DNA of 64,000 nucleotides from a virus (lineage: Duplodnaviria; Caudoviricetes). Numbering within the stretch: position 1 is the stretch's first letter; each line of letters opens with the position of its first letter. Both the position numbers and the translations under genes were made by a program. Of the stretch, positions 1,271-29,913 are shown piece by piece. The stretch lies in the IMG/VR virus record IMGVR_UViG_3300042402_003952. One strand, written 5' to 3'. The notes under the pieces are model-generated. The model had not been told where the DNA came from. It saw only the letters and a program-made list of their open reading frames with translations, and made no database searches.

Positions 1271-1675
1271 ATGTTTAATTTTAACTTCGGAAAGAAGAAA
1301 TCAGACAAGAAGCAGATAATCCTCATAAGCGTAATACTCAGTGGTATCGTAGCAACCCTCTCACAATGCTCTGGAGTCTCCTCAGAGCGTCTCTGGGACC
1401 TTCTAGACGAGGTACAGAGGTCTCTGTTCCCTCAGACCATAATCAACGATGTTTTGCTCCAAGATCCTGGTGTGGTGGAGAGGAGAGTCGAAAGAGATGT
1501 AGATAAAGCAATCAGAGAATATGAACGCTTGACAAGACACTCAGAACCACCTAGAGTACCTTTGCCCAGGTTGATAAAGAAATCTCTAGATAATTCTAAG
1601 TGTTATAGTAAAGAATGTAAGTCTTTAGGTGGAGAAATAAGACTTTGTGCTCCTTGGAAAGAGGATTGTGTTTAA
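1271..1675 (+). CDS. hypothetical membrane-anchored protein
   Basis: 134-aa ORF with an N-terminal hydrophobic segment (IILISVILSGIVATL) and a Cys-containing C-terminus. Confidence 0.7.
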   Translation: MFNFNFGKKKSDKKQIILISVILSGIVATLSQCSGVSSERLWDLLDEVQRSLFPQTIINDVLLQDPGVVERRVERDVDKAIREYERLTRHSEPPRVPLPRLIKKSLDNSKCYSKECKSLGGEIRLCAPWKEDCV

Positions 1676-1717
1676 AATGTATAAATAACTTATCCTTATA
1701 TTTACTTAAAGGTTATT

Positions 1718-1906
1718 ATGTCAGTATCACAAGAACTCTTAAATGCTGTTGAAGTGTGGAAAGTAGAAGATGAAAAATTTACTACAGGAAACAATTCTGC
1801 AGGAACTCGCGCTCGTAAAGCACTTCAAGAAATTGCTAAATTAGTTAAATCCCGTAGAGCAGAAATTGCAGAGGAAAAAAATTCCCGTAAAGAAGCAAAG
1901 GGTTGA
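1718..1906 (+). CDS. small basic protein, histone H1-like (Hc1-type) family resemblance
   Basis: GNNSAGTRARKALQEIAKLVKSRRAEI resembles the NKAAGTRARK-type motif; AAGG-type RBS and TATAAATA upstream. Confidence 0.55.
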   Translation: MSVSQELLNAVEVWKVEDEKFTTGNNSAGTRARKALQEIAKLVKSRRAEIAEEKNSRKEAKG

Positions 1907-1954
1907 AAATTTATAAGAAAACTCTTATAAATAAACATACTTAGGTCGAAAACA

Positions 1955-2056
1955 ATGTCTTATCCAATGCCCACCAAACAGTTTAGTATTCTCGATTGCC
2001 GCTATTGGCATATTGAGGGTGCTCCCCTGTTTGCGGATATGGAAAGACATATGTAA
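1955..2056 (+). CDS. 33-aa small ORF with its own late promoter and terminator
   Basis: TATAAATA at ~1926, ATG 1955, MSYPMPTKQFSILDCRYWHIEGAPLFADMERHM, TAA 2054-2056, terminator at ~2082-2114. Confidence 0.5.
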   Translation: MSYPMPTKQFSILDCRYWHIEGAPLFADMERHM

Positions 2057-2122
2057 GATGTAATCCATAAAGCAAAATACAGGGGAGAGAAACCAAAAGT
2101 TTCCTCCCTTTTTTTATGCTTT

Positions 2123-2280
2123 GTGCCACTTGTTCAACTGGTCGTATCATTTGCCATTGGGGTCCAAACCCTGGTATATTACTTGAGTTGGTGGGGGAAC
2201 GAGACCCCAAGTGCCTAGGACCACTTCTGGAACTGGCACAAACCACTTGATTCCCAACGGGTTCTGTGGTATTCTTAAGG
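2123..2280 (+). promoter_or_regulatory. tandem sigma70-type promoters upstream of the tRNA array, each preceded by a 16-bp dyad CCACTT-N4-AACTGG
   Basis: TTGCCA-N18-TATATT and TTGATT-N17-TATTCT; dyads CCACTTGTTCAACTGG and CCACTTCTGGAACTGG. Confidence 0.5.
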
Positions 2281-2325
2281 AGTGGTTGAGAGACCACCAG
2301 CACCTTGACAATCTAAACCTTTAAT

Positions 2326-2398
2326 GGGTCTGTTGCATAGCGGCTAATGCACCTGGCTTTTAACCAGTATATCGTGGGTTCGAGTCCCACCAGACCCA
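2326..2398 (+). tRNA. tRNA-Lys(UUU)
   Basis: Acceptor GGGTCTG/CAGACCC; anticodon loop CT-TTT-AA; TTCGAGT T-loop. Confidence 0.95.
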
Positions 2399-2436
2399 TT
2401 GACCGCTACAGTTCGGTCATTAAACATAAACTGTTC

Positions 2437-2518
2437 GGGTAGGTGTCCGAGTGGTTAATGGAGGAGGTCTGTAAAACCTCTGGCTCTGCCTACGGGGGTT
2501 CAAATCCCTCCCTGCCCA
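2437..2518 (+). tRNA. tRNA-Tyr(GUA)
   Basis: GAGGT-CTGTAAA-ACCTC anticodon arm; long variable arm; TTCAAAT T-loop. Confidence 0.95.
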
Positions 2519-2522
2519 CCTT

Positions 2523-2596
2523 GACCCATTAGTGTAGCGGTTTATCACGCCACCCTGTCACGGTGGAGATCACGGGTTCAAATCCCGTATGGGTCG
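2523..2596 (+). tRNA. tRNA-Asp(GUC)
   Basis: CCACC-CTGTCAC-GGTGG; acceptor GACCCAT/ATGGGTC. Confidence 0.95.
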
Positions 2597-2644
2597 TTGC
2601 TACGCTGCCTGTGGAGTATTCCTCCTTGGTGGTTGTAGCATCAT

Positions 2645-2716
2645 GGTCCTATCGTCTAGTGGTGAGGACATCACTCTTTCACAGTGAAGACACGGGTTCA
2701 AATCCCGTTAGGACTA
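2645..2716 (+). tRNA. tRNA-Glu(UUC)
   Basis: TCACT-CTTTCAC-AGTGA; acceptor GGTCCTA/TAGGACT. Confidence 0.95.
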
Positions 2717-2719
2717 CCA

Positions 2720-2796
2720 CGGAATGTAGCGCAGTTTGGTAGCGCATCTGTTTTGGGAACAGAGGGTCGCAGGTTCGAATCCTGTCATTCCGACCA
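2720..2796 (+). tRNA. tRNA-Pro(UGG), CCA encoded
   Basis: TCTGT-TTTGGGA-ACAGA; acceptor CGGAATG/CATTCCG followed by ACCA. Confidence 0.95.
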
Positions 2797-2869
2797 GGAA
2801 ACATAGCTTAGTTGGTAAAGCATTCGACTGATAATCGAAAGAGCACTGGTTCGAGTCCAGTTGTTTCCA
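2797..2869 (+). tRNA. tRNA-Ile(GAU)
   Basis: TTCGA-CTGATAA-TCGAA; acceptor GGAAACA/TGTTTCC. Confidence 0.95.
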
Positions 2870-2892
2870 TTGTTGCCTTAAGGCAACATTAA

Positions 2893-2982
2893 GGAAGTGT
2901 GGCAGAGAGGTCTAATGCAGTGGATTGCTAATCCGCCGATGTTCTTTAAGGGCATCCGTTGGTTCGAATCCAACCACTTCCG
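2893..2982 (+). tRNA. tRNA-Ser(GCU)
   Basis: GTGGA-TTGCTAA-TCCGC; long variable arm; acceptor GGAAGTG/CACTTCC; G73. Confidence 0.95.
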
Positions 2983-2984
2983 TA

Positions 2985-3064
2985 GGACTCCAGCAAGGTG
3001 CTTGCTAGGATATAAAAGACTGACGCCTCCCTCTTCAGAAAGAGTAACCAGCAGGTCAGCGTCC
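2985..3064 (+). ncRNA. unidentified structured RNA within the tRNA array
   Basis: GGAC/GTCC ends, AGCAAG-GTG-CTTGCT hairpin, CTGAC/GTCAG stem enclosing a CTCTT-CAG-AAAGAG hairpin; no tRNA T-loop. Confidence 0.4.
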
Positions 3065-3069
3065 ACTTT

Positions 3070-3141
3070 GGCAGTGTAGTTCAGTGGTAGAACAAGAGAT
3101 TCATACCCTCTATGTCGGTAGTTCAATTCTACCCACTGCCT
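3070..3141 (+). tRNA. tRNA with CAU anticodon (Met or Ile2)
   Basis: AGAGA-TTCATAC-CCTCT (A31-C39 mismatch); acceptor GGCAGTG/CACTGCC. Confidence 0.85.
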
Positions 3142-3142
3142 T

Positions 3143-3214
3143 GTGTCGTTAGCCTAGTGGTTAAGGCAGTAGTTTGTGGAACTACCTAGATGGGTTCAAT
3201 TCCCATACGACACC
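3143..3214 (+). tRNA. tRNA-His(GUG); G-1 not encoded
   Basis: GTAGT-TTGTGGA-ACTAC; acceptor GTGTCGT/ACGACAC; C73; base -1 is T. Confidence 0.9.
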
Positions 3215-3216
3215 CC

Positions 3217-3288
3217 GCCCTTATAGCTCAGTGGTAGAGCAACTCACTAGTAATGAGTAGGTCGTTGGTTCAAATCCGACTGAGGGCT
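3217..3288 (+). tRNA. tRNA-Thr(AGU), A34 anticodon
   Basis: ACTCA-CTAGTAA-TGAGT; acceptor GCCCTTA/TGAGGGC; U73. Confidence 0.9.
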
Positions 3289-3323
3289 CTCAACTATCTG
3301 AAATTTCCAGATAGTTCATACAA

Positions 3324-3395
3324 TCCAGAATCGACTAACTGGCAGGTCAGCACCCTTTGAAGGTGTACGTCTAGGTTCGAATCCTAGTTCTGGAA
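3324..3395 (+). tRNA. tRNA-Gln(UUG)
   Basis: GCACC-CTTTGAA-GGTGT; acceptor TCCAGAA/TTCTGGA. Confidence 0.95.
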
Positions 3396-3413
3396 TTGCC
3401 CCTAATGGGGCAA

Positions 3414-3590
3414 CAATCTGTCCAACACTGGGGTTCGACTCCCCACATCTCCACTCTTGGGGATGAACTGGCATTCGACTGGGCAGAGGGTTCTGAGAAT
3501 AAATCTCAACAACATCGTATCTTTCCGCAGAACTGCTGTTGCCGTTTGAGCAATAGCACTTTGAGCGAACTGGGGAGTAATCCCTTTTTC
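3414..3590 (+). ncRNA. ssrA: circularly permuted (two-piece) tmRNA
   Basis: T-arm TGGGG-TTCGACT-CCCCA and acceptor 3' strand CATCTCC-A (3429-3453) come before the 5' strand GGGGATG (3459-3465, G3.U70) and ..ATTCGAC; helix TCTGTCCA/TGGGCAGA; tag ORF 3505-3549 LNNIVSFRRTAVAV* resembles cyanobacterial ANNIVSF... tags. Confidence 0.9.
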
Positions 3591-3591
3591 T

Positions 3592-3666
3592 GTTGGGTTG
3601 GTGCAATTGGTAGCATCTCGGTCTCCAAAACCGAAGATCAGAGTTCAAGTCTCTGGCCCTTCGCCA
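3592..3666 (+). tRNA. tRNA-Trp(CCA), with two U-U mismatches in the acceptor stem
   Basis: TCGG-TCTCCAAAA-CCGA anticodon arm (loop CT-CCA-AA); G73 plus CCA; acceptor GTTGGGT/GCCCTTC. Confidence 0.8.
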
Positions 3667-3667
3667 T

Positions 3668-3744
3668 ACCCTCTTAACTCAGTGGACCAGAGTGCTTGGC
3701 TACGAACCAAGAAGTCGCAAGTTCGAATCTTGCAGAGGGTGCCA
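3668..3744 (+). tRNA. tRNA-Arg(ACG), CCA encoded
   Basis: CTTGG-CTACGAA-CCAAG; acceptor ACCCTCT/AGAGGGT. Confidence 0.95.
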
Positions 3745-3781
3745 TTTAAATCTAAATAGCAACAAGAGGTGTGATAGGAAA

Positions 3782-4252
3782 ATGGAATTAGTAGAACCAC
3801 ACTCAACTATACTAGTTTTGAATAGTTCTTACGAGCCACTACACTTCACTAATTGGAAACGTGCAATAGTTTTACTTTTCAAACAGAAAGCAAAACTTAT
3901 CTCCAAGAGAATTATTCGTTTGGTGAATTATGTGAAAATTCCATTTTCCTATGGAAGATCAGATTACCCGACGAGAGCACTCATCTATAAACGGGATGAT
4001 TATGAGTGTCAGTATTGTGAGTCTAAAAATGACCTTACAATTGACCACATAATTCCCCGCTCAAAAGGTGGTAAAGATACTTGGGATAATTTAGTTGCTT
4101 GTTGCACATCTTGTAATCTCAAAAAAGGAAATAAACTTCTTAAAGAGACTAATATGATCTTAAAGAGTATTCCGCAAGCACCAATTAGTAGAGTAATACT
4201 TGATATTCAGAAAACAAAAGTTTCTGAATGGAAGGACTATTTGTTTCAGTGA
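3782..4252 (+). CDS. HNH endonuclease (McrA/HNH_5-like) inside the tRNA array
   Basis: LVLNSSYEPL...RDDYECQYC...LTIDHIIPRSKGGKDTWDNLVACCTSCNLKKG; AGGA-type RBS before ATG 3782. Confidence 0.9.
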   Translation: MELVEPHSTILVLNSSYEPLHFTNWKRAIVLLFKQKAKLISKRIIRLVNYVKIPFSYGRSDYPTRALIYKRDDYECQYCESKNDLTIDHIIPRSKGGKDTWDNLVACCTSCNLKKGNKLLKETNMILKSIPQAPISRVILDIQKTKVSEWKDYLFQ

Positions 4253-4347
4253 GAGATTGACAAATTTTTGAAAATACCCTAATATATAAAGACAGAGGTT
4301 AAGTCCCTGTTACATCCTTATGAGGTGTATCACACTTAATCCATCAT

Positions 4348-4422
4348 CGTGGGGAAGTGTAATGGTTGCACAGAAGTCTCATAAGCTTCAGGTAGGTGGT
4401 TCAACTCCATCCCCCGCCTCCA
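4348..4422 (+). tRNA. tRNA-Met(CAU), initiator-like (C1 mismatch), CCA encoded
   Basis: C1:C72 mismatch; GAAGT-CTCATAA-GCTTC; lacks the three G-C anticodon-stem pairs typical of fMet. Confidence 0.8.
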
Positions 4423-4495
4423 GCCCTTGTATTCCAATGGTAGAGAAGGTGGACTTAGAATCCATACAGTGTAAGTTCGAATCTTACCAGGGGCA
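4423..4495 (+). tRNA. tRNA-Leu(UAG) with a short variable loop
   Basis: GTGGA-CTTAGAA-TCCAT; 5-nt variable region ACAGT; A73. Confidence 0.9.
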
Positions 4496-4535
4496 CTTGA
4501 CAATCAAACTTAAATAGTTTATAATTGTCTTATAA

Positions 4536-4607
4536 GCGGAGTTAGTTCAGCGGTAGAACGCTATCCTTCCAAGTTAGATGTCGTCGGTTCGATTCCGATA
4601 CTCCGCT
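4536..4607 (+). tRNA. tRNA-Gly(UCC)
   Basis: CTATC-CTTCCAA-GTTAG; acceptor GCGGAGT/ACTCCGC; U73. Confidence 0.9.
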
Positions 4608-4659
4608 CTGAACCTTCGGGTTCTATAAACACACAAACACACTTCATAGGAGAATACTT

Positions 4660-4857
4660 ATGACGCCTTATCAACTTAGATTTGAAGTTTTTAAGCAAGC
4701 TTATGCGATGCTTTCGGATAATTATCATGTAGAGTTTGCAAAAGCAGAATGCTCTAATGGTGGCAAATTGCCGGATGGATTTGATTTAAAATATCCAACT
4801 CTTTCTGATGTTCTTGGGCACGCAGAAACGATTAATGATTTTGTAAGTTCTAAGTAA
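4660..4857 (+). CDS. hypothetical protein (65 aa)
   Basis: AGGAGA RBS; MTPYQLRFEVFKQAY...YPTLSDVLGHAETINDFVSSK. Confidence 0.7.
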   Translation: MTPYQLRFEVFKQAYAMLSDNYHVEFAKAECSNGGKLPDGFDLKYPTLSDVLGHAETINDFVSSK

Positions 4858-4865
4858 TAGAACAT

Positions 4866-4937
4866 TCCCCTGTGGCGCAGCGGTAGCGCGAGAAACTGTT
4901 AATTTCCAGGTCACAAGTTCGAATCTTGTCGGGGGAG
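4866..4937 (+). tRNA. tRNA-Asn(GUU)
   Basis: Loop CT-GTT-AA; acceptor TCCCCTG/CGGGGGA; G73. Confidence 0.9.
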
Positions 4938-4956
4938 TTGCTATCAGTAGCAAACT

Positions 4957-5034
4957 GTAGGTGCCAAATACCCCTTCTGGTTAATGCTGGAAGAAGTAAA
5001 GAGTGTGGACATAGGTAAAGTCCACAACACCTAC
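4957..5034 (+). ncRNA. unidentified three-way-junction RNA between tRNAs
   Basis: GTAGGTG/CACCTAC closing stem with inner hairpins CTTCTGG/CTGGAAG and GTGGAC/GTCCAC. Confidence 0.4.
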
Positions 5035-5039
5035 CACAA

Positions 5040-5111
5040 CCTCTGGTAGTCTATTGGTAAGGACGGGCGGATAACGCACTTGGAAACTAGGTTCGATTCC
5101 TAGACAGAGGT
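5040..5111 (+). ncRNA. tRNA-like RNA with a non-canonical anticodon arm
   Basis: Acceptor CCTCTG/CAGAGG, D-arm GTC/GAC with TGG, T-arm CTAGG-TTCGATT-CCTAG; the anticodon region GGGCGGATAACGCAC gives only a ~5-nt loop. Confidence 0.6.
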
Positions 5112-5114
5112 AAC

Positions 5115-5187
5115 GGGAGCATAGCTCAGCGGTAGCAGCGTCTGCTTTACACGCAGAATGTCGGGGGTTCGAATCCCTCTGCTCCCA
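5115..5187 (+). tRNA. tRNA-Val(UAC)
   Basis: TCTGC-TTTACAC-GCAGA; acceptor GGGAGCA/TGCTCCC. Confidence 0.95.
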
Positions 5188-5214
5188 CTTGCATAAATAT
5201 TGAAAAAGAGTATA

Positions 5215-5649
5215 ATGGAAAAACTGTTTAAACTTTTAAGTGATGCTCAGTCATCACTTTTTGTTTTATTTCATAAAACTTGGGCATTTCATTGGAATGT
5301 AGTTGGTGAAGATTTCACACAACTACATCAACTCTTTGGTGGACAGTATGAGACTATGTTTGAAGAGATTGATCGTCTTTCTGAACATATGAGATACTTA
5401 AATGTAAAACCATTAAGTTCTCTTTCAAGAATGCTTGAAGTGACTCAAATCAAAGAGTCTGCAAGTTCAACTGGAGCAAAAGAAATGCTTCAGGAACTTC
5501 TGGATAATAACACCAAGTTTTGTGAGTTAATGGCAGAGATTTCGGAAGAAGCAGAAGAACAAAAGTCTTATGCAACTGCCAATCTAGTTCAAGACTTAAT
5601 GGAATCTCATGGTAAATTTGTATGGATGTTGAGATCACATTTACAGTGA
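5215..5649 (+). CDS. dps: Dps / ferritin-like DNA-protecting protein
   Basis: HKTWAFHWNVVGEDFTQLHQLF...QYETMFEEIDRLSEH and ESHGKFVWML are Dps-family motifs. Confidence 0.9.
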   Translation: MEKLFKLLSDAQSSLFVLFHKTWAFHWNVVGEDFTQLHQLFGGQYETMFEEIDRLSEHMRYLNVKPLSSLSRMLEVTQIKESASSTGAKEMLQELLDNNTKFCELMAEISEEAEEQKSYATANLVQDLMESHGKFVWMLRSHLQ

Positions 5650-5664
5650 TAAGGATGAAGAAAA

Positions 5665-5916
5665 ATGATTTCAATAAGATGTAAAGATTGCAATAAAGAA
5701 TTAACAGGACACCCATCAAAAACAGTTACTTGTGGGTGTCCTAATATGGCAACAATTCGTGGAGACAAGATTTCGGCACTTGACTTATCTCGAATTGTCA
5801 TGCTAAACTCTCTAAAAGAAAATCAAAACAAAAGTGTGCTTACTTCTCAAGACATTGCTTGGCAAGAAGCACGTCGTCAACGTAAAGTAAGACGACTTGA
5901 TTTTGAAGTCCGTTGA
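5665..5916 (+). CDS. hypothetical Zn-ribbon-like protein
   Basis: CKDC...CGCPN cysteine pattern. Confidence 0.7.
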   Translation: MISIRCKDCNKELTGHPSKTVTCGCPNMATIRGDKISALDLSRIVMLNSLKENQNKSVLTSQDIAWQEARRQRKVRRLDFEVR

Positions 5917-5927
5917 GGACTTAATTT

Positions 5928-6014
5928 GGAAGGTCAATCCGATTGGCGACGGAACCGCTCTTGAAAAGCGTTGAGGTGTTAAAGCCCTTGGGAGTTCGAC
6001 TCTCCCACCTTCCG
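5928..6014 (+). tRNA. tRNA-Ser(UGA)
   Basis: CGCT-CTTGAAA-AGCG; long variable arm; acceptor GGAAGGT/ACCTTCC; G73. Confidence 0.95.
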
Positions 6015-6127
6015 TTTAGAAAAGTTACAAATTTAACAATTTCTTCAACAGTGTTAAGATATCAACACAAAAAGTTGACTGCGAAATACCTGTGATTAGT
6101 ATATAGTAGTATCACGGGGACGAACCG

Positions 6128-6277
6128 ATGGATCAACATACTTACGAAAATTGGGTGAAAATCAAAGAAACATTTGAAACTTCTGGTAATATTGATAATA
6201 TGTTTTACAAAAGAGCCGTTCAAATTGTTAAAACAAGAGTCGATCCTCTTGCAAAGTTTTTGGGAGATGAGAAGTGA
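6128..6277 (+). CDS. small hypothetical protein (49 aa)
   Basis: MDQHTYENWVKIKETFETSGNIDNMFYKRAVQIVKTRVDPLAKFLGDEK; GGGGA RBS; TGATG coupling to the next ORF. Confidence 0.65.
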   Translation: MDQHTYENWVKIKETFETSGNIDNMFYKRAVQIVKTRVDPLAKFLGDEK

Positions 6278-6444
6278 TGGAACCTGGGGATGAATTTATT
6301 AGTAGGTCTGAAGTGCAGGAGATGATCGACCAAGCTATTGACAAACACAATAAAACTGCTACAATAATATCAGCAGCAATCGGTTCGGTTCTGCTCTTCT
6401 TCTATGCCCACGGCGTCATTGCTATTATAGATAGAGTACAATGA
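6277..6444 (+). CDS. small membrane protein (55 aa)
   Basis: MEPGDEFISRSEVQEMIDQAIDKHNKTATIISAAIGSVLLFFYAHGVIAIIDRVQ; one C-terminal TM segment. Confidence 0.65.
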   Translation: MEPGDEFISRSEVQEMIDQAIDKHNKTATIISAAIGSVLLFFYAHGVIAIIDRVQ

Positions 6445-6560
6445 GACACTTTGCTCATTTAATTTTGGATAATCAGGTTTCGCTTTTTATCCTTTGCTAC
6501 CTCTTGACAATGGTTCCAATCATGGGTATAATGATTATACACCAAACAAAAGAAAAATAA
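6441..6560 (+). CDS. small membrane protein (39 aa)
   Basis: ATGA overlap; MRHFAHLILDNQVSLFILCYLLTMVPIMGIMIIHQTKEK. Confidence 0.55.
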   Translation: MRHFAHLILDNQVSLFILCYLLTMVPIMGIMIIHQTKEK

Positions 6561-6636
6561 CGGAGTATCGCCTAACTTGGTCATGGCACCTGCTTTGGGA
6601 GCAGGAATAATTTCGGTTCAAATCCGAATACTCCGA
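6561..6636 (+). tRNA. tRNA-Pro(UGG), second copy
   Basis: CCTGC-TTTGGGA-GCAGG; acceptor CGGAGTA/TACTCCG. Confidence 0.9.
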
Positions 6637-7157: not shown

Positions 7158-7778
7158 ATGAGTTGTAAAAAGCAAGGTTTATTTGATAAACATCATATTG
7201 TCCCAAGATATATGGGTGGGACAGATAACTTTGATAATTTGGTTACAGTATCGAGGACTTGCCATACGATGTTTCATTATTGTAACTGGAATCTATGGAA
7301 CAACAAAGAAGATTATATTGCGTATAAAGGATTGTCTTCTCAAATAACAAAACAAGATATAATTAAAGAGACTGCTAGTATTGCTGGTAAAAAATCTTAC
7401 AAAAATGGAACTGGGTTATTTTCTCTAACAAAAGAAGAAAAGAAAAAAGCATCTTCAAAGGGAGGTAAAAAAGCAGGGAAATATATGTCACAATCTATGT
7501 GGATAAATGATGGAACACAAAATAGAAGAATATTAAAAATCGAAATATTACCTGATGGTTGGGTAGCAGGTAAAGTTAAAAAGAAAAAAAGAAAAAGATA
7601 TGGAAGAAGTTGGGACGAATATATGGATACATTTAAAGAGGAATATCAAAGTAGAATTGAATACTTAAATGGAGTTGACTTGACAAAATGGGGTATTAAG
7701 ACTAAAATTGCTAATGACTGGGGCATTTCAAGAACACAAGTAAATAGATTTCTTGAAAAACACTATTTACCAGCATAG
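7158..7778 (+). CDS. free-standing HNH homing endonuclease
   Basis: KHHIVPRYMGGTDNFDNLVTVSRTCHTMFH; C-terminal HTH-like WGISRTQVNRFL; late promoter upstream; homologous to the psbA intron-1 ORF. Confidence 0.8.
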   Translation: MSCKKQGLFDKHHIVPRYMGGTDNFDNLVTVSRTCHTMFHYCNWNLWNNKEDYIAYKGLSSQITKQDIIKETASIAGKKSYKNGTGLFSLTKEEKKKASSKGGKKAGKYMSQSMWINDGTQNRRILKIEILPDGWVAGKVKKKKRKRYGRSWDEYMDTFKEEYQSRIEYLNGVDLTKWGIKTKIANDWGISRTQVNRFLEKHYLPA

Positions 7779-8351: not shown

Positions 8352-8475
8352 AGTGGTGGAGCCTCAGAAAGGACCCTCTAGGGTTTATTGCTTCCTTTAA
8401 AGAGCAATTGGTGCGGATGGGGATCTCTCCTGCCTGGTTTCCAATTTCCAGTCAAAGAATTGGTGGCGAGACTGA
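8352..8475 (+). ncRNA. structured RNA upstream of the NAD-dependent epimerase (wcaG/manA-type cyanophage motif)
   Basis: Two tandem modules GGTTT-[stem]-TTCC-N3/4-AAAGA-[stem]-TGG with compensating stems ATTGC/GCAAT and CCAAT/ATTGG; TGGYG motifs; upstream of a WcaG-family gene. Confidence 0.6.
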
Positions 8476-8484
8476 GTTTACCTA

Positions 8485-26660: not shown

Positions 26661-26689
26661 CTCTCATAACTCTTAACATTGTTAAACAC

Positions 26690-26760
26690 CCATTAACCGA
26701 GACCTATGGGGTGTATAAATTACGTCTCTCATATCTTCTCTAGGGGTGAGAAGAAATATT
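26690..26760 (+). ncRNA. structured psbA 5' leader (PhotoRC-II-like)
   Basis: GAGAC...GTCTC pairing and TTCTC-TAGGGGT-GAGAA hairpin upstream of psbA; family assignment from recall of cyanophage psbA leaders. Confidence 0.5.
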
Positions 26761-26806
26761 GAACCCTGTTCGTCCCCACGAACTCTTACTTAACCCTTTT
26801 TCAAAT

Positions 26807-29180
26807 ATGACTGCTTCAATCGCTTCACGCCGTTCTGGCGAAAACCTCTGGGAACAATTCTGTTCCTGGGTAACTTCAACCGATAATAGACTGTATGTTG
26901 GTTGGTTCGGAGTCCTTATGATTCCTTGCCTTCTTGCTGCTACAACTTGTTTTATTATCGCTTTCATCGGTGCTCCCCCTGTAGACATAGACGGTATCCG
27001 TGAACCCGTTGCTGGTTCACTAATGTATGGAAACAACATCATCTCTGGTGCTGTTATTCCAAGTTCTAATGCCATTGGATTGCATTTTTACAGCATCTGG
27101 GATGCTGCTTCTCTTGATGAGTGGCTTTATAAATAATATTGGGTCACTTTAAATCGGGTGAACTGCTGGAAAGCTAAGTTCTTTATGAAACACAAACATC
27201 ACCTTACTCCAAAATATCTTGGTGGTTCTAACGAATCCCAAAATCTTGTAGAAGTTTCTACAACTCAACACGCTATGTTTCATTATTGTAACTGGCGTCT
27301 TTGGGGAAACGAAGAAGATAAGATTGCTTGGAAAGCACTTGCAGGATACTCTAAAAAAGAGGAAATAATTCATCAAGTTATTTCTCTTGCAGGTAAAAGA
27401 GGTGGTAAGGTTGCAAAAGAAAGCGGACAACTTCGGTCTGCTGCTCTTAAACAACCAAGAAGTGTAAGGCAAAAGATTGGTAAAAATCTTATCAACTATG
27501 CCTACAAAAATCCAAAGAATGCAACACAAGAAACTCTTACTAATAGAAAATACAGTAAAGTATTTCACATTTATGAAAAACTAACTGAAAGGACTATTGG
27601 TAATCATCTTGGGGATGTAGTTTTTAATCCAGAAGAAGATAAAACACTCAAAACTGTTTGTTCTATTATTCTGGAAAAATATGGGGTAAAAGTTTATCCT
27701 TCACATCTTAATAGTGTTGCTAATGGAAATAGACTTTTAACAAGTGGTATTTCTTGTAGTTGGATTTTAGAGAATATGCCAATCAGCATCCAAGCCACAG
27801 ACGATACTTCTGTGGAAGGTTCAGAGACTACTGGGTTCAACAAGCGTGTTGAGTAATACCAGATTAGCGCCCGACATCTTATAAAAAATAAGATGAAGAT
27901 ATAGTCCAGTCCATATGGAAACATATGGTTCCCCCGACTGCTATAATGGGGGTCCTTTCCAACTTGTTGTCTTCCACTTCCTCATCGGCATCTACTGCTA
28001 TATGGGTCGTGAATGGGAACTCTCTTACCGTCTAGGTATGCGCCCTTGGATTATGGTTGCTTATAGCGCACCTGTTGCTGCTGCGAGTGCTGTATTCCTG
28101 GTCTATCCTTTCGGTCAAGGTTCTTTCTCTGATGCGATGCCTCTTGGTATCTCTGGTACATTCAACTACATGCTTGTATTCCAGGCAGAGCACAACATCC
28201 TGATGCACCCCTTCCACATGCTTGGAGTTGCTGGTGTCTTCGGTGGTTCTCTTTTCTCTGCTATGCACGGATCTCTTGTCACCTCTAGTCTTGTACGTGA
28301 GACTACAGAAAATGAGTCACAGAACTACGGATACAAGTTCGGACAAGAAGAAGAAACCTACAACATTGTAGCTGCTCATGGTTATTTTGGTCGCCTTATC
28401 TTCCAATATGCTTCCTTCAATAACTCACGTTCACTTCACTTCTTCCTTGCTGCTTGGCCCGTTGTAGGCATCTGGTTCACTGCTCTTGGTGTTTCTACAA
28501 TGGCTTTTAACCTCAATCGTCGGGGTCCCGTCTTAGCAATTTGACGGTAAACATCGGGTGAACTGCTGGAAGCCCTCCATAAATGGGTAATCAGCATCCA
28601 AGTCCAAAGTACACTTTGGAAAGGTTCAGAGACTACCTGAGGAGTTCAGTCTCCTTAATAACAGGAATAAGTGCCCGACATCCTAAATGGATGAAGATAT
28701 AGTCCACTCCTTAAAGATGGTAAATTTAAGGGTTCAGTGCAACGGTTTTAATTTCAATCAGTCCATCATTGACTCACAAGGTCGTGTCCTTAATACTTGG
28801 GCAGATGTACTGAATCGTGCAGGTCTCGGAATGGAGGTCATGCATGAACGGAACGCTAGATTTGTTGGTGTTCTTGCTTAGGAATAAGCATTAGTAAAAT
28901 CGGGTTAAACGGGGAAACTCTCTATGAGACAATCCCGTACCAAGTCAGAAAGGGTTTAAGTTTTCTGAAAGGTCTAACGACTAGATGGTGAGTCCCAACA
29001 ATAATCCATCCACGAATGCCCGACATCCAGAACGGATGAAGAGATAGTCTGAACTTACTAGTGATAGTAAGAAGTAGAGGATAAAGAACCACTACGATAA
29101 CAAAATTGCACAACTTCCCACTTGACCTTGCCGCAGCAGAAGCAACACCAGTTGCTCTTACTGCTCCCGCAATCGGTTGA
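26807..29180 (+). CDS. psbA: photosystem II D1 protein in four exons (26807-27126, 27941-28513, 28740-28857, 29109-29180)
   Basis: Joined exons total 1083 nt = 360 aa plus stop; junctions restore EWL|YNGG, AFNL|NGFN and ERNA|HNFPLDLA. Confidence 0.97.
27127..27940 (+). mobile_element. group I intron 1 in psbA, encoding an HNH endonuclease
   Basis: 5' exon ends in U with P1 GTGGCT/GGTCAC; terminal G at 27940; core motifs AATCGGGTGAACTGCTGGAA, AATCAGCATCCAAG, GGTTCAGAGACTA, AGATATAGTCC. Confidence 0.92.
27185..27856 (+). CDS. intron-encoded HNH homing endonuclease
   Basis: [30 protein letters not shown]; the 3' end reads through intron core motifs. Confidence 0.85.
   Translation: MKHKHHLTPKYLGGSNESQNLVEVSTTQHAMFHYCNWRLWGNEEDKIAWKALAGYSKKEEIIHQVISLAGKRGGKVAKESGQLRSAALKQPRSVRQKIGKNLINYAYKNPKNATQETLTNRKYSKVFHIYEKLTERTIGNHLGDVVFNPEEDKTLKTVCSIILEKYGVKVYPSHLNSVANGNRLLTSGISCSWILENMPISIQATDDTSVEGSETTGFNKRVE
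28514..28739 (+). mobile_element. group I intron 2 in psbA (ORF-less, 226 nt)
   Basis: Core motifs ATCGGGTGAACTGCTGGAA, AATCAGCATCCAAG, GGTTCAGAGACTA, AGATATAGTCC; terminal G at 28739; removal restores CT|C AAC GGT. Confidence 0.92.
28858..29108 (+). mobile_element. group I intron 3 in psbA (ORF-less, 251 nt) near codon 334-336
   Basis: P1 GAACGCT/GGTGTTC; motifs AAATCGGGTTAAACGGGGAA, CAATCCCGTACCAAG, GGTCTAACGACTAG, AGATAGTCT; terminal G at 29108. Confidence 0.92.
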
Positions 29181-29186
29181 TATAAT

Positions 29187-29215
29187 GAGAGACCCTTTAC
29201 GGGTCTCTTTTTTTA
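29187..29215 (+). terminator. psbA terminator
   Basis: GAGAGACCC-TTTAC-GGGTCTCT followed by a T run. Confidence 0.85.
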
Positions 29216-29267
29216 TGCTATAATGGAGTTTAAGATTTTATAAATAGTTAAAAGATTAAACACCATA

Positions 29268-29789
29268 ATGAGAACCACGAAGATTTGTAGAACCTGCACA
29301 CAAGAACTTCCTATCTCTGATTTTAGAGAAGGTCGTAGAAGATGTATTAGGTGTGAAGAAAAAACCTATGCAGAAAATTGGGCAAGTAAAACTCACATTA
29401 CTTGCAACAAGTGTGGTTTAGAAAAACTTATTTCTGAATATTATAAAGGTCATAAGAGGTGTAAGGATTGTTACAGTAAAGACTATAAAGACAAAAAACC
29501 TTCTTATGATGATAAGAAAGACTATATGTTAAAGTATACTTATGGGCAGGATTTTGGATTAACTGAATATCAAAATCTTTTGCAGGAACAGAATGAAGTA
29601 TGTGCTATTTGTTTAAATCCAAATACTAATGGTAGGAAGGATAGTAATAATCTTTATGTAGACCACGATCATAATACTGGAAAGGTTCGTGGATTGTTGT
29701 GTAGTAACTGCAATAGAATGCTTGGACTAGTAGGAGATAATATCGGCACACTAACTAATGCAGTTAAATACTTACAAAAGCACCAATAA
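29268..29789 (+). CDS. free-standing endonuclease VII-type HNH homing endonuclease (F-CphI-like)
   Basis: QNEVCAIC...YVDHDHNTGKVRGLLCSNCNRMLG EndoVII signature; N-terminal Cys repeats; between psbA and psbD as for S-PM2 F-CphI. Confidence 0.88.
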   Translation: MRTTKICRTCTQELPISDFREGRRRCIRCEEKTYAENWASKTHITCNKCGLEKLISEYYKGHKRCKDCYSKDYKDKKPSYDDKKDYMLKYTYGQDFGLTEYQNLLQEQNEVCAICLNPNTNGRKDSNNLYVDHDHNTGKVRGLLCSNCNRMLGLVGDNIGTLTNAVKYLQKHQ

Positions 29790-29790
29790 T

Positions 29791-29913
29791 ATGTCTCATA
29801 ATAATCAACATCATCCTATGGAACCCTGGGTCATTTGGGCAGGTGTAGCTATGATGGTATTCACAGTTCTTGTGTTTGTTTTATTCACTCTTGGGCAGAT
29901 TTATTGGGGATGA
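29791..29913 (+). CDS. 40-aa single-TM peptide
   Basis: MSHNNQHHPMEPWVIWAGVAMMVFTVLVFVLFTLGQIYWG*. Confidence 0.55.
   Translation: MSHNNQHHPMEPWVIWAGVAMMVFTVLVFVLFTLGQIYWG

Follow-up and report, generated by a model that had tools for sequence, protein, structure and literature searches.

Three group I introns in the psbA gene of an uncultured cyanophage and the probable pairing of one of them with a neighboring endonuclease

The 64,000-nucleotide (nt) stretch of viral DNA analyzed here (IMG/VR record IMGVR_UViG_3300042402_003952; hereafter the window) contains a psbA gene that is interrupted by three group I introns and followed by a gene for a 173-amino-acid (aa) endonuclease of the endonuclease VII (Endo VII) type. 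Phage D1, the protein encoded by psbA, keeps host photosynthesis going during infection. We favor, without regarding it as settled, the view that this psbA locus is a mosaic of three mobility systems: a first intron with an endonuclease of its own, a second one paired with the downstream endonuclease, and a third one that is an orphan. We regard the third intron as an orphan because the downstream endonuclease tracks intron 2 and because the open reading frame (ORF) usually found beside intron 3 is absent.

Joining positions 26807-27126, 27941-28513, 28740-28857 and 29109-29180 of the plus strand (exons 1 to 4) gives a 1083-nt ORF that encodes a 360-aa D1 without any internal stop. Exon 1 comprises codons 1-106 plus two nt of codon 107 and exon 4 closes with a TGA stop at 29178-29180; the first three exons are also delimited by ungapped matches to D1. 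The reconstructed protein aligns to D1 of phage S-PM2 without gaps, at 92% identity over residues 1-335 and 96% over residues 335-360. Excision of 27127-27940, 28514-28739 and 28858-29108 had been predicted in a preliminary description of the sequence to yield exactly such a protein, and the uninterrupted reconstruction agrees with it. Only these junctions keep the frame while satisfying both the rule of U before the 5´ splice site and that of G at the intron end. Ordinary ORF calling returns nothing but fragments of the gene. Synthesis of the 360-aa D1 precursor requires loss of all three introns from the pre-mRNA. Against cultured phages, the best DNA matches of the window are confined to exons (81-85% identity), and freshwater and lake-water metagenome DNA runs contain 45-96% of the window's sampled words. 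Gene content matches that of a T4-like cyanomyovirus. Within the best explanation we can offer, psbA is a functional gene of an uncultured freshwater T4-like cyanophage.

The three inserts are almost certainly real group I introns. They were called as such when their covariance-model score reached the gathering score of Rfam family RF00028 (50 bits), and they score 51.8, 80.3 and 67.2 bits, respectively. Intron 1 (27127-27940, plus strand) is 814 nt long, follows nt 320 of the coding sequence (CDS) and harbors an ORF in its P5 loop. Its score barely passes the threshold because this ORF parts P1-P4 from the remaining core; the match covers the 3´ core. Intron 2 (28514-28739, plus strand) is ORF-less and lies after CDS nt 893, within codon 298. 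Intron 3 (28858-29108, plus strand), also ORF-less, follows CDS nt 1011, which places it between codons 337 and 338. At all three junctions T ends the 5´ exon and G is the last intron nucleotide. For each of them a P1 helix can be drawn that puts a U.G wobble at the 5´ splice site (exon/intron GUGGCU/GGGUCAC, AACCU/GGGGU and GAACGCU/GGUGUUC for introns 1, 2 and 3), as the preliminary description had stated. Its further claim, that introns 1 and 2 have nearly identical motifs and intron 3 is of another type, holds as well: the cores of introns 1 and 2 are 71% identical and have catalytic motifs in common, and intron 3 clusters apart.

To place these introns among their relatives, IMG/VR viral contigs were probed in six ways (with the ORF of intron 1, with the downstream endonuclease, with three junction-specific DNA patterns and with a further ORF of about 200 aa described below), which gave 197 loci in total. 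In each locus that holds psbA, exons were mapped by ungapped protein anchors together with the U/G junction rule. The same junctions as in the window were found again in dozens of related viral contigs. Altogether the introns occupy about 13 sites, after CDS nt 182, 233, 279, 320, 502, 551, 648, 753, 893, approximately 995, 1005, 1011 and 1014, and at about 13 sites in the relatives the introns likewise follow a U and terminate in G. Clustering of 117 psbA introns from these loci yields one large lineage, which comprises introns 1 and 2, the S-PM2 intron and nearly all introns of other sites; the S-PM2 intron is 79% identical to intron 2 over 159 nt. The lineage of intron 3 forms a separate cluster with lengths of 251-258 nt (259 nt in some loci) and is confined to site 1011. 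Up to seven introns are present per psbA gene. Because relatives reach seven introns and about 13 sites, the count of three is not unique; multi-intron phage psbA is a recurring, little-described pattern rather than a singular case. Full-text literature searches found no paper on multi-intron phage psbA, which is not proof that none exists. The seven-intron gene (L008/L107, one contig) has its introns after about CDS nt 182, 320, 502, 554, 648, 893 and 995. Downstream of it lies an Endo VII-like gene that is divergent (32% identical), and the same contig has a further homologue of the HNH domain (L028). As regards intron 3, its 3´ third is 80-87% identical to introns of Streptococcus phages, and Staphylococcus phage records match too. 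Over longer stretches, the similarity to introns of Clostridium and Bacillus phages is about 70-75%, and a short part is matched at 99% or more by twelve Pseudomonas phage records; cyanophage psbA introns of the other lineage gave no match to it.

The gene downstream of psbA (29268-29789, plus strand) starts 87 nt past the psbA stop and is predicted to encode a free-standing homing endonuclease of 173 aa with an Endo VII motif. It matches Pfam Endonuclease_7 at E = 3.4e-22 (78.6 bits against a cut-off of 23.6) and phrog_2633 at 1e-31. In S-PM2 (and S-RSM88), the psbA intron and the free-standing endonuclease F-CphI constitute a case of collaborative homing (Zeng et al. 2009, as described in PMC6083498 and PMC5931967). 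The window protein is 42% identical to F-CphI across the entire length of the latter, is 31 aa longer and possesses an additional N-terminal CxxC...CxxC module. F-CphI has the motif CX2-4C ... DHDH ... R ... CX2C-N, within which mutagenesis found C84, D101, H102, R110 and N118 to be essential (PMC6083498). All essential residues are matched in the window protein, by C112/C115, D132-H133-D134-H135, R141 and C145/C148/N149. The presence of an F-CphI-like endonuclease beside psbA, which had been noticed from the sequence earlier, is therefore well founded. More than 30 viral contigs contain orthologues (84-93% identity), invariably just downstream of psbA; the cultured phages of the collection include no carrier of this subfamily. 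At the site associated with F-CphI, after CDS nt 1005, psbA of the window is uninterrupted, and the nearest intron lies 6 nt further downstream and belongs to the other lineage. Because there is no intron at 1005, we treat the 173-aa protein as a homologue of F-CphI whose specificity may be different. The codon numbers of our 360-aa protein are probably one above conventional D1 numbering; in the latter, the S-PM2 site would presumably be 334/335 and that of intron 3 336/337, adjoining the manganese-cluster ligand His337. Endo VII-type genes that are 44-45% identical to that of the window also follow psbA genes intron-free in their 3´ part in three loci (L086, L087, L088); they represent either a different specificity or unprotected targets.

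To which intron this endonuclease belongs can be judged from co-occurrence. After identical sequences had been collapsed, 68 distinct genotypes of the psbA 3´ region remained for comparison, each extending at least 700 nt past the gene. Two of them were corrected by hand: L061 begins inside the 893 intron, and in L065 two copies of exon 4 flank the endonuclease gene. The 173-aa endonuclease lies downstream in 20 genotypes. An intron at 893 is present in 18 of these, one at 1005 in four, and one at 1011 in five (long type, that of intron 3) and in a further three (short type). An F-CphI-type gene follows psbA in five genotypes, all of which have the 1005 intron, one also the 893 intron and none an intron at 1011. 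The ORF of about 200 aa follows psbA in 20 genotypes; all have the 1011 intron (18 long, two shortened), one has the 893 intron and none has the one at 1005. Eight of the 20 endonuclease genotypes have no intron at all at 1005-1014, and their intact sequence there is the same as in endonuclease-free phages. By contrast, the intact consensus 893 site is found in endonuclease-free phages only, and the two endonuclease genotypes that lack the 893 intron have a variant 893 site plus the 1005 intron. Within a subsample of genotypes with an intron of the intron 3 type, the endonuclease is present in five of six with the 893 intron and in none of 11 without it (Fisher p = 0.001). Mapped on a 5´-exon tree, the presence of the endonuclease switches at least 14 times. 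Of 12 independent contrasts, about 9.4 show the 893 intron changing along with the endonuclease and none shows the opposite (median p 0.004), whereas the 1011 intron is not associated with the endonuclease (p 0.75). These patterns point to intron 2 as the probable protective partner of the downstream endonuclease, and we consider it somewhat better than an even chance that the two form a collaborative homing pair.

Several observations weigh against this pairing. Two endonuclease genotypes (L070, L079) are without the 893 intron, which in turn occurs without the 173-aa endonuclease in L020, L102 and L128 and beside other Endo VII-like genes in L107, L108, L124 and L135. L065 has exon 4 twice; the second copy is divergent and sets in exactly at codon 338, 7 nt past the endonuclease stop. 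It looks as if intron 3, exon 4 and the endonuclease had moved there as one block with its junction at site 1011. The intron-free alleles at 1005-1014 differ from the exon flanks of intron 3 at about six positions and might represent forms of a target in this region that are naturally resistant. The loci come from metagenome contigs gathered through several probes, and the psbA tree itself is affected by recombination. RNA cover, discussed below, is absent at 28676-28883 and past 29092, i.e. in exons 3 and 4, so that the junction of intron 1 is the only one covered. Finally, intron anatomy, protein families and co-occurrence are directly observed, and all cleavage specificities and homing events are deduced from them. 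A single recombination breakpoint was sought in exon identity profiles, which proved too noisy. In L065 (on the same contig as L100), the region at about 2380-3150 in psbA orientation has a footprint resembling one-sided insertion.

Intron 3 has another usual neighbor. In phages with the intron 3 type but without the Endo VII gene, a conserved ORF of about 200 aa begins 63-93 nt after psbA (for example L021:5846-6457; the family is present in more than 20 viral contigs). When loci were retrieved through this ORF alone, 20 distinct genotypes were obtained and all 20 have an intron at 1011. Six more loci with the ORF start exactly at exon 4. Its distant homologues (33-36% identical) accompany introns at about nt 995 or of the short 1011 type. 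The ORF has no match in Pfam or PHROGs, although distant homologues pass the Pfam threshold for NUMOD3, a nuclease-associated DNA-binding motif. The predicted fold of its C-terminal domain is confident (predicted local distance difference test, pLDDT, 75-94). Foldseek returned nothing for it at E <= 0.001, and a wide structural search gave no Z above 3.9; the weak matches of the C-terminal domain include the GIY-YIG nucleases Slx1 and HIGLE (Z 3.4-3.7). A language-model neighbor search places this domain among GIY-YIG/T5orf172 clusters (0.91-0.92). Motifs contribute to the GIY-YIG reading as well, and the ORF has one that resembles NUMOD3. The ORF is therefore a candidate for a free-standing nuclease of the GIY-YIG type, possibly of a new homing endonuclease family. 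No trace of it was found within the window, and no cultured phage carrier was found. Intron 3 of the window is thus probably an orphan, left without the nuclease that usually accompanies it. In two loci (L182, L185) the 1011 intron beside the ORF measures just 117 or 195 nt instead of about 258 nt and may be decaying through internal deletion.

The third component of the locus is encoded by intron 1 itself. A putative HNH homing endonuclease of 223 aa occupies 27185-27856 on the plus strand, with its last approximately 26 codons overlapping the ribozyme core. Its start codon is most likely ATG at 27185, as in homologues, rather than GTG at 27158. An ORF-less intron of 227-228 nt at site 320 (L055 and others) aligns to 27130-27186 plus 27778-27940, and alignment with the 228-nt L055 intron is what puts the HNH ORF in the P5 loop. 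Searches of Pfam, NCBIfam and PDB with the single sequence yielded nothing useful, and the window protein alone has no Pfam HNH match at E <= 0.1. Within its family, Pfam HNH (PF01844) matches 21 of 24 members, at best with E = 5.7e-6. Residues 4-35 of the family profile align to the HNH motif of 6me0 (E = 0.0021) and 6ghc, and the N-terminal residues H5, H6, G13, G14, N20, H29 and H33 (HH...GG...N...H...H) are conserved. In addition, phrog_655 ("homing endonuclease") matches the ORF at 1.3e-6. The AlphaFold2 model is poor (mean pLDDT 48.9); at its N-terminus a strand at 2-6, a strand at 21-25 and a helix at 26-40, the order to be expected of a beta-beta-alpha-metal fold, are predicted at pLDDT 58-71. 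The family matches and the alignment to solved HNH motifs uphold the earlier proposal that intron 1 encodes an HNH endonuclease. We hold this assignment and that of the downstream protein to the F-CphI family to be, taken jointly, very probable. A second HNH ORF of 206 aa, apparently free-standing, is present elsewhere in the window (7158-7778, plus strand); the N-terminal domains of its product and of the intron 1 endonuclease share 53% identity (E = 9e-23), and Rfam detects no group I intron around it.

Transcripts were sought in four metatranscriptome assemblies mapped on the region, i.e. in contigs and not in raw reads. RNA contigs of three studies fuse 27126 to 27941 and thus lack precisely the 814-nt intron 1. 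The best of them has about 3 mismatches to the window in 171 nt. Relatives with at most 10 mismatches over the junction stretch all carry intron 1, and the nearest intron-less allele has at least 22 differences. Because all close relatives carry the intron, a spliced transcript is the best explanation of this contig, an unsampled intron-less strain being a less likely source. Excised group I introns are expected to circularize when their terminal G attacks after a U near their own 5´ end. One RNA contig joins the terminal G of an intron 3 of the L021 type to intron nt 5, directly after AGAU, and its 21 intervening letters are the exact 3´ end of the L021 variant, including the terminal G. This is consistent with circularized excised RNA of the intron 3 type.

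If the locus is indeed such a mosaic, its parts might work as follows. Intron 1 would be a classical mobile intron, whose HNH enzyme would cut intron-less psbA of a co-infecting phage near CDS nt 320, and repair would copy the intron into the cut allele. The 173-aa enzyme would cut uninterrupted alleles at CDS nt 893, with intron 2 splitting the site in its own genome; repair would then transfer intron 2, the downstream exons and the endonuclease gene together. Intron 3 would be a spliced passenger whose usual partner has been displaced, and it may still shield the phage from the nuclease of about 200 aa of its competitors. A broader and more speculative reading, which we put forward tentatively and give somewhat less than an even chance, is that the 3´ end of freshwater cyanophage psbA is a contested slot. 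Free-standing nucleases of at least three kinds, unrelated or diverged, would each travel with a protective intron of their own at a site of their own: the F-CphI type with 1005, the 173-aa Endo VII type with 893 and the GIY-YIG/NUMOD3-like ORF of about 200 aa with 1011. The nucleases would replace each other via recombination, and leftover introns, such as intron 3, would serve as inherited immunity against nucleases of competing phages. The accumulation of introns in psbA would then be a record of past nuclease conflicts among co-infecting phages.

Other interpretations need to be considered. The preliminary description proposed that intron 3 and ORF 29268-29789 repeat the S-PM2 system, so that the 173-aa enzyme would target 1005-1011, intron 3 would be its protective partner and intron 2 an unrelated extra. 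Homology to F-CphI, the same place downstream of psbA and a distance of just 6 nt between intron 3 and the F-CphI-associated site speak for this idea. The one-block arrangement of L065 with its junction at codon 338 does too, and the intron-free alleles beside the endonuclease, being about six positions off the flanks of intron 3, could be explained by resistance. Still, intron 3 lies at 1011 and not at 1005, belongs to the other lineage, and is present as its long type in five of 20 endonuclease genotypes, while eight of 20 are intron-free at 1005-1014 with the sequence of endonuclease-free phages. Of the 24 genotypes with the long type, 18 have it beside the ORF of about 200 aa, and none of these 18 has the endonuclease. 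Given also that the independent contrasts detect no association and that the endonuclease tracks 893 instead, we do not retain this proposal and consider it quite improbable. It is likewise unlikely, though worth keeping in mind, that the 173-aa protein is functionally unrelated to psbA introns and owes its link with intron 2 to physical linkage. One possibility is an intron-less homing endonuclease whose target lies elsewhere, for instance in the psbA-psbD spacer; another is the product of a domesticated or decaying gene. Free-standing endonucleases that mobilize themselves are common in T4-like phages (PMC3037559, PMC3984707), the gene is merely 280-530 nt away from the intron 2 site, and the Endo VII-like genes of L086-L088 adjoin fully uninterrupted psbA. 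Plain linkage, however, predicts an equal or tighter tie to the nearer 1005-1014 sites, and the opposite is seen, which counts against linkage alone. Moreover, the 893 intron tracks endonuclease presence, which shifts at least 14 times on the 5´-exon tree, and the protein has intact catalytic and zinc-binding residues and is conserved at 84-93% over its full length.

A decaying psbA pseudogene with inserts that do not splice would account for the fragments obtained by ORF calling and for the missing observation of RNA junctions across introns 2 and 3, where exons 3 and 4 are without RNA cover. This is nevertheless scarcely credible. The frame is perfect across four exons, the encoded D1 is 92% identical to that of S-PM2, three ribozyme cores are intact and the junctions are conserved in many diverged contigs. 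Environmental RNA, furthermore, holds both the spliced junction of intron 1 and circular RNA of the intron 3 type. The mosaic with intron 2 and the 173-aa endonuclease as a pair remains the reading that we prefer.

Among known systems, S-PM2 is one of the closest. There, too, an Endo VII-motif gene with the same essential residues lies just downstream of psbA, an intron is presumed to split the target of the enzyme, and the intron is of one lineage with introns 1 and 2 of the window. The difference is that S-PM2 has a single intron after CDS nt 1005 (CGT/AAT), where the window has none; intron 3 of the window lies after 1011 (GCT/CAC), and the window enzyme co-occurs with an intron 112 nt upstream of 1005, at 893. 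Another close system is the freshwater Synechococcus phage S-SRM01 (MW015081). It has three group I introns in psbA, an HNH-type ORF in the first of them, an Endo VII-type gene downstream and a PhotoRC-II motif upstream of psbA. Its introns, however, are situated after CDS nt 279, 753 and 1005, none of which is occupied in the window, its nuclease is of the 142-aa F-CphI type and its intron ORF is 25% identical to that of the window. In the paper on S-SRM01, psbA is presented as two partial genes, with a single intron suggested (PMC8557907). We find that positions 1469-3871 of its genome (L002) constitute a three-intron psbA that splices to full D1; in the annotation, this region appears as two partial D1 genes plus an endonuclease. 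The expectation that gene callers would mishandle such psbA genes, voiced for the window in the preliminary description, is thereby borne out in a cultured phage. In T4, the free-standing mobE with the I-TevIII/nrdB intron likewise illustrates mobilization of a neighboring immobile intron (PMC2790892, PMC3984707). The T4 enzyme is of the HNH type and nrdB has a defunct intron ORF, whereas the window combines an Endo VII-type enzyme and ORF-less introns with several pairs in one gene. Two further cases are comparable by description only. Chloroplast psbA of Chlamydomonas reinhardtii, as cited in PMC5931967, has four group I introns with light-regulated splicing, and D1 synthesis there likewise hinges on several splicing events, though it is a gene of an organelle and not of a phage. 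In S-CBWM1, a 633-bp ORF for an endonuclease lies inside a psbA intron (Xu et al. 2018, as cited in PMC8557907).

The arrangement has consequences both for the phage and for surveys. Supply of D1 in this phage depends on three ribozyme reactions, and splicing of the S-PM2 psbA intron was reported to be responsive to light (PMC5931967). Surveys of viral photosynthesis genes in lakes will miscount or discard psbA genes of this kind, because gene callers fragment them as they did in S-SRM01. Two phage systems with collaborative homing are known (PMC3984707). Should the pairings by site suggested above be true, a single gene would offer three natural pairs side by side, among them one with a specificity new to the F-CphI family and one that involves a candidate nuclease family not described before.

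Several other features surround the locus. A PhotoRC-II RNA motif is located in the psbA 5´ leader (26674-26767, plus strand; Rfam RF01717, 81.4 bits against a gathering score of 39). Directly 3´ of psbA, a consensus scan marks a terminator-like hairpin of nine pairs, five of them G-C, followed by a T run (29187-29209, plus strand). The same kind of scan alone marks a promoter-like site before the endonuclease gene (29196-29224, plus strand; TTTACG, 17 nt, TATAAT, with TG); the count of such sites in the region is not above the shuffled expectation. Between the endonuclease gene and psbD lies a 40-aa ORF (29791-29913, plus strand), which matches phrog_7358 (unknown function) end to end at 9e-16 and is, because of this match, a conserved small phage protein. 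Farther away, the window holds a cluster of about 23 tRNA genes (2326-6636) and a wcaG RNA motif (8379-8477, 94.8 bits).

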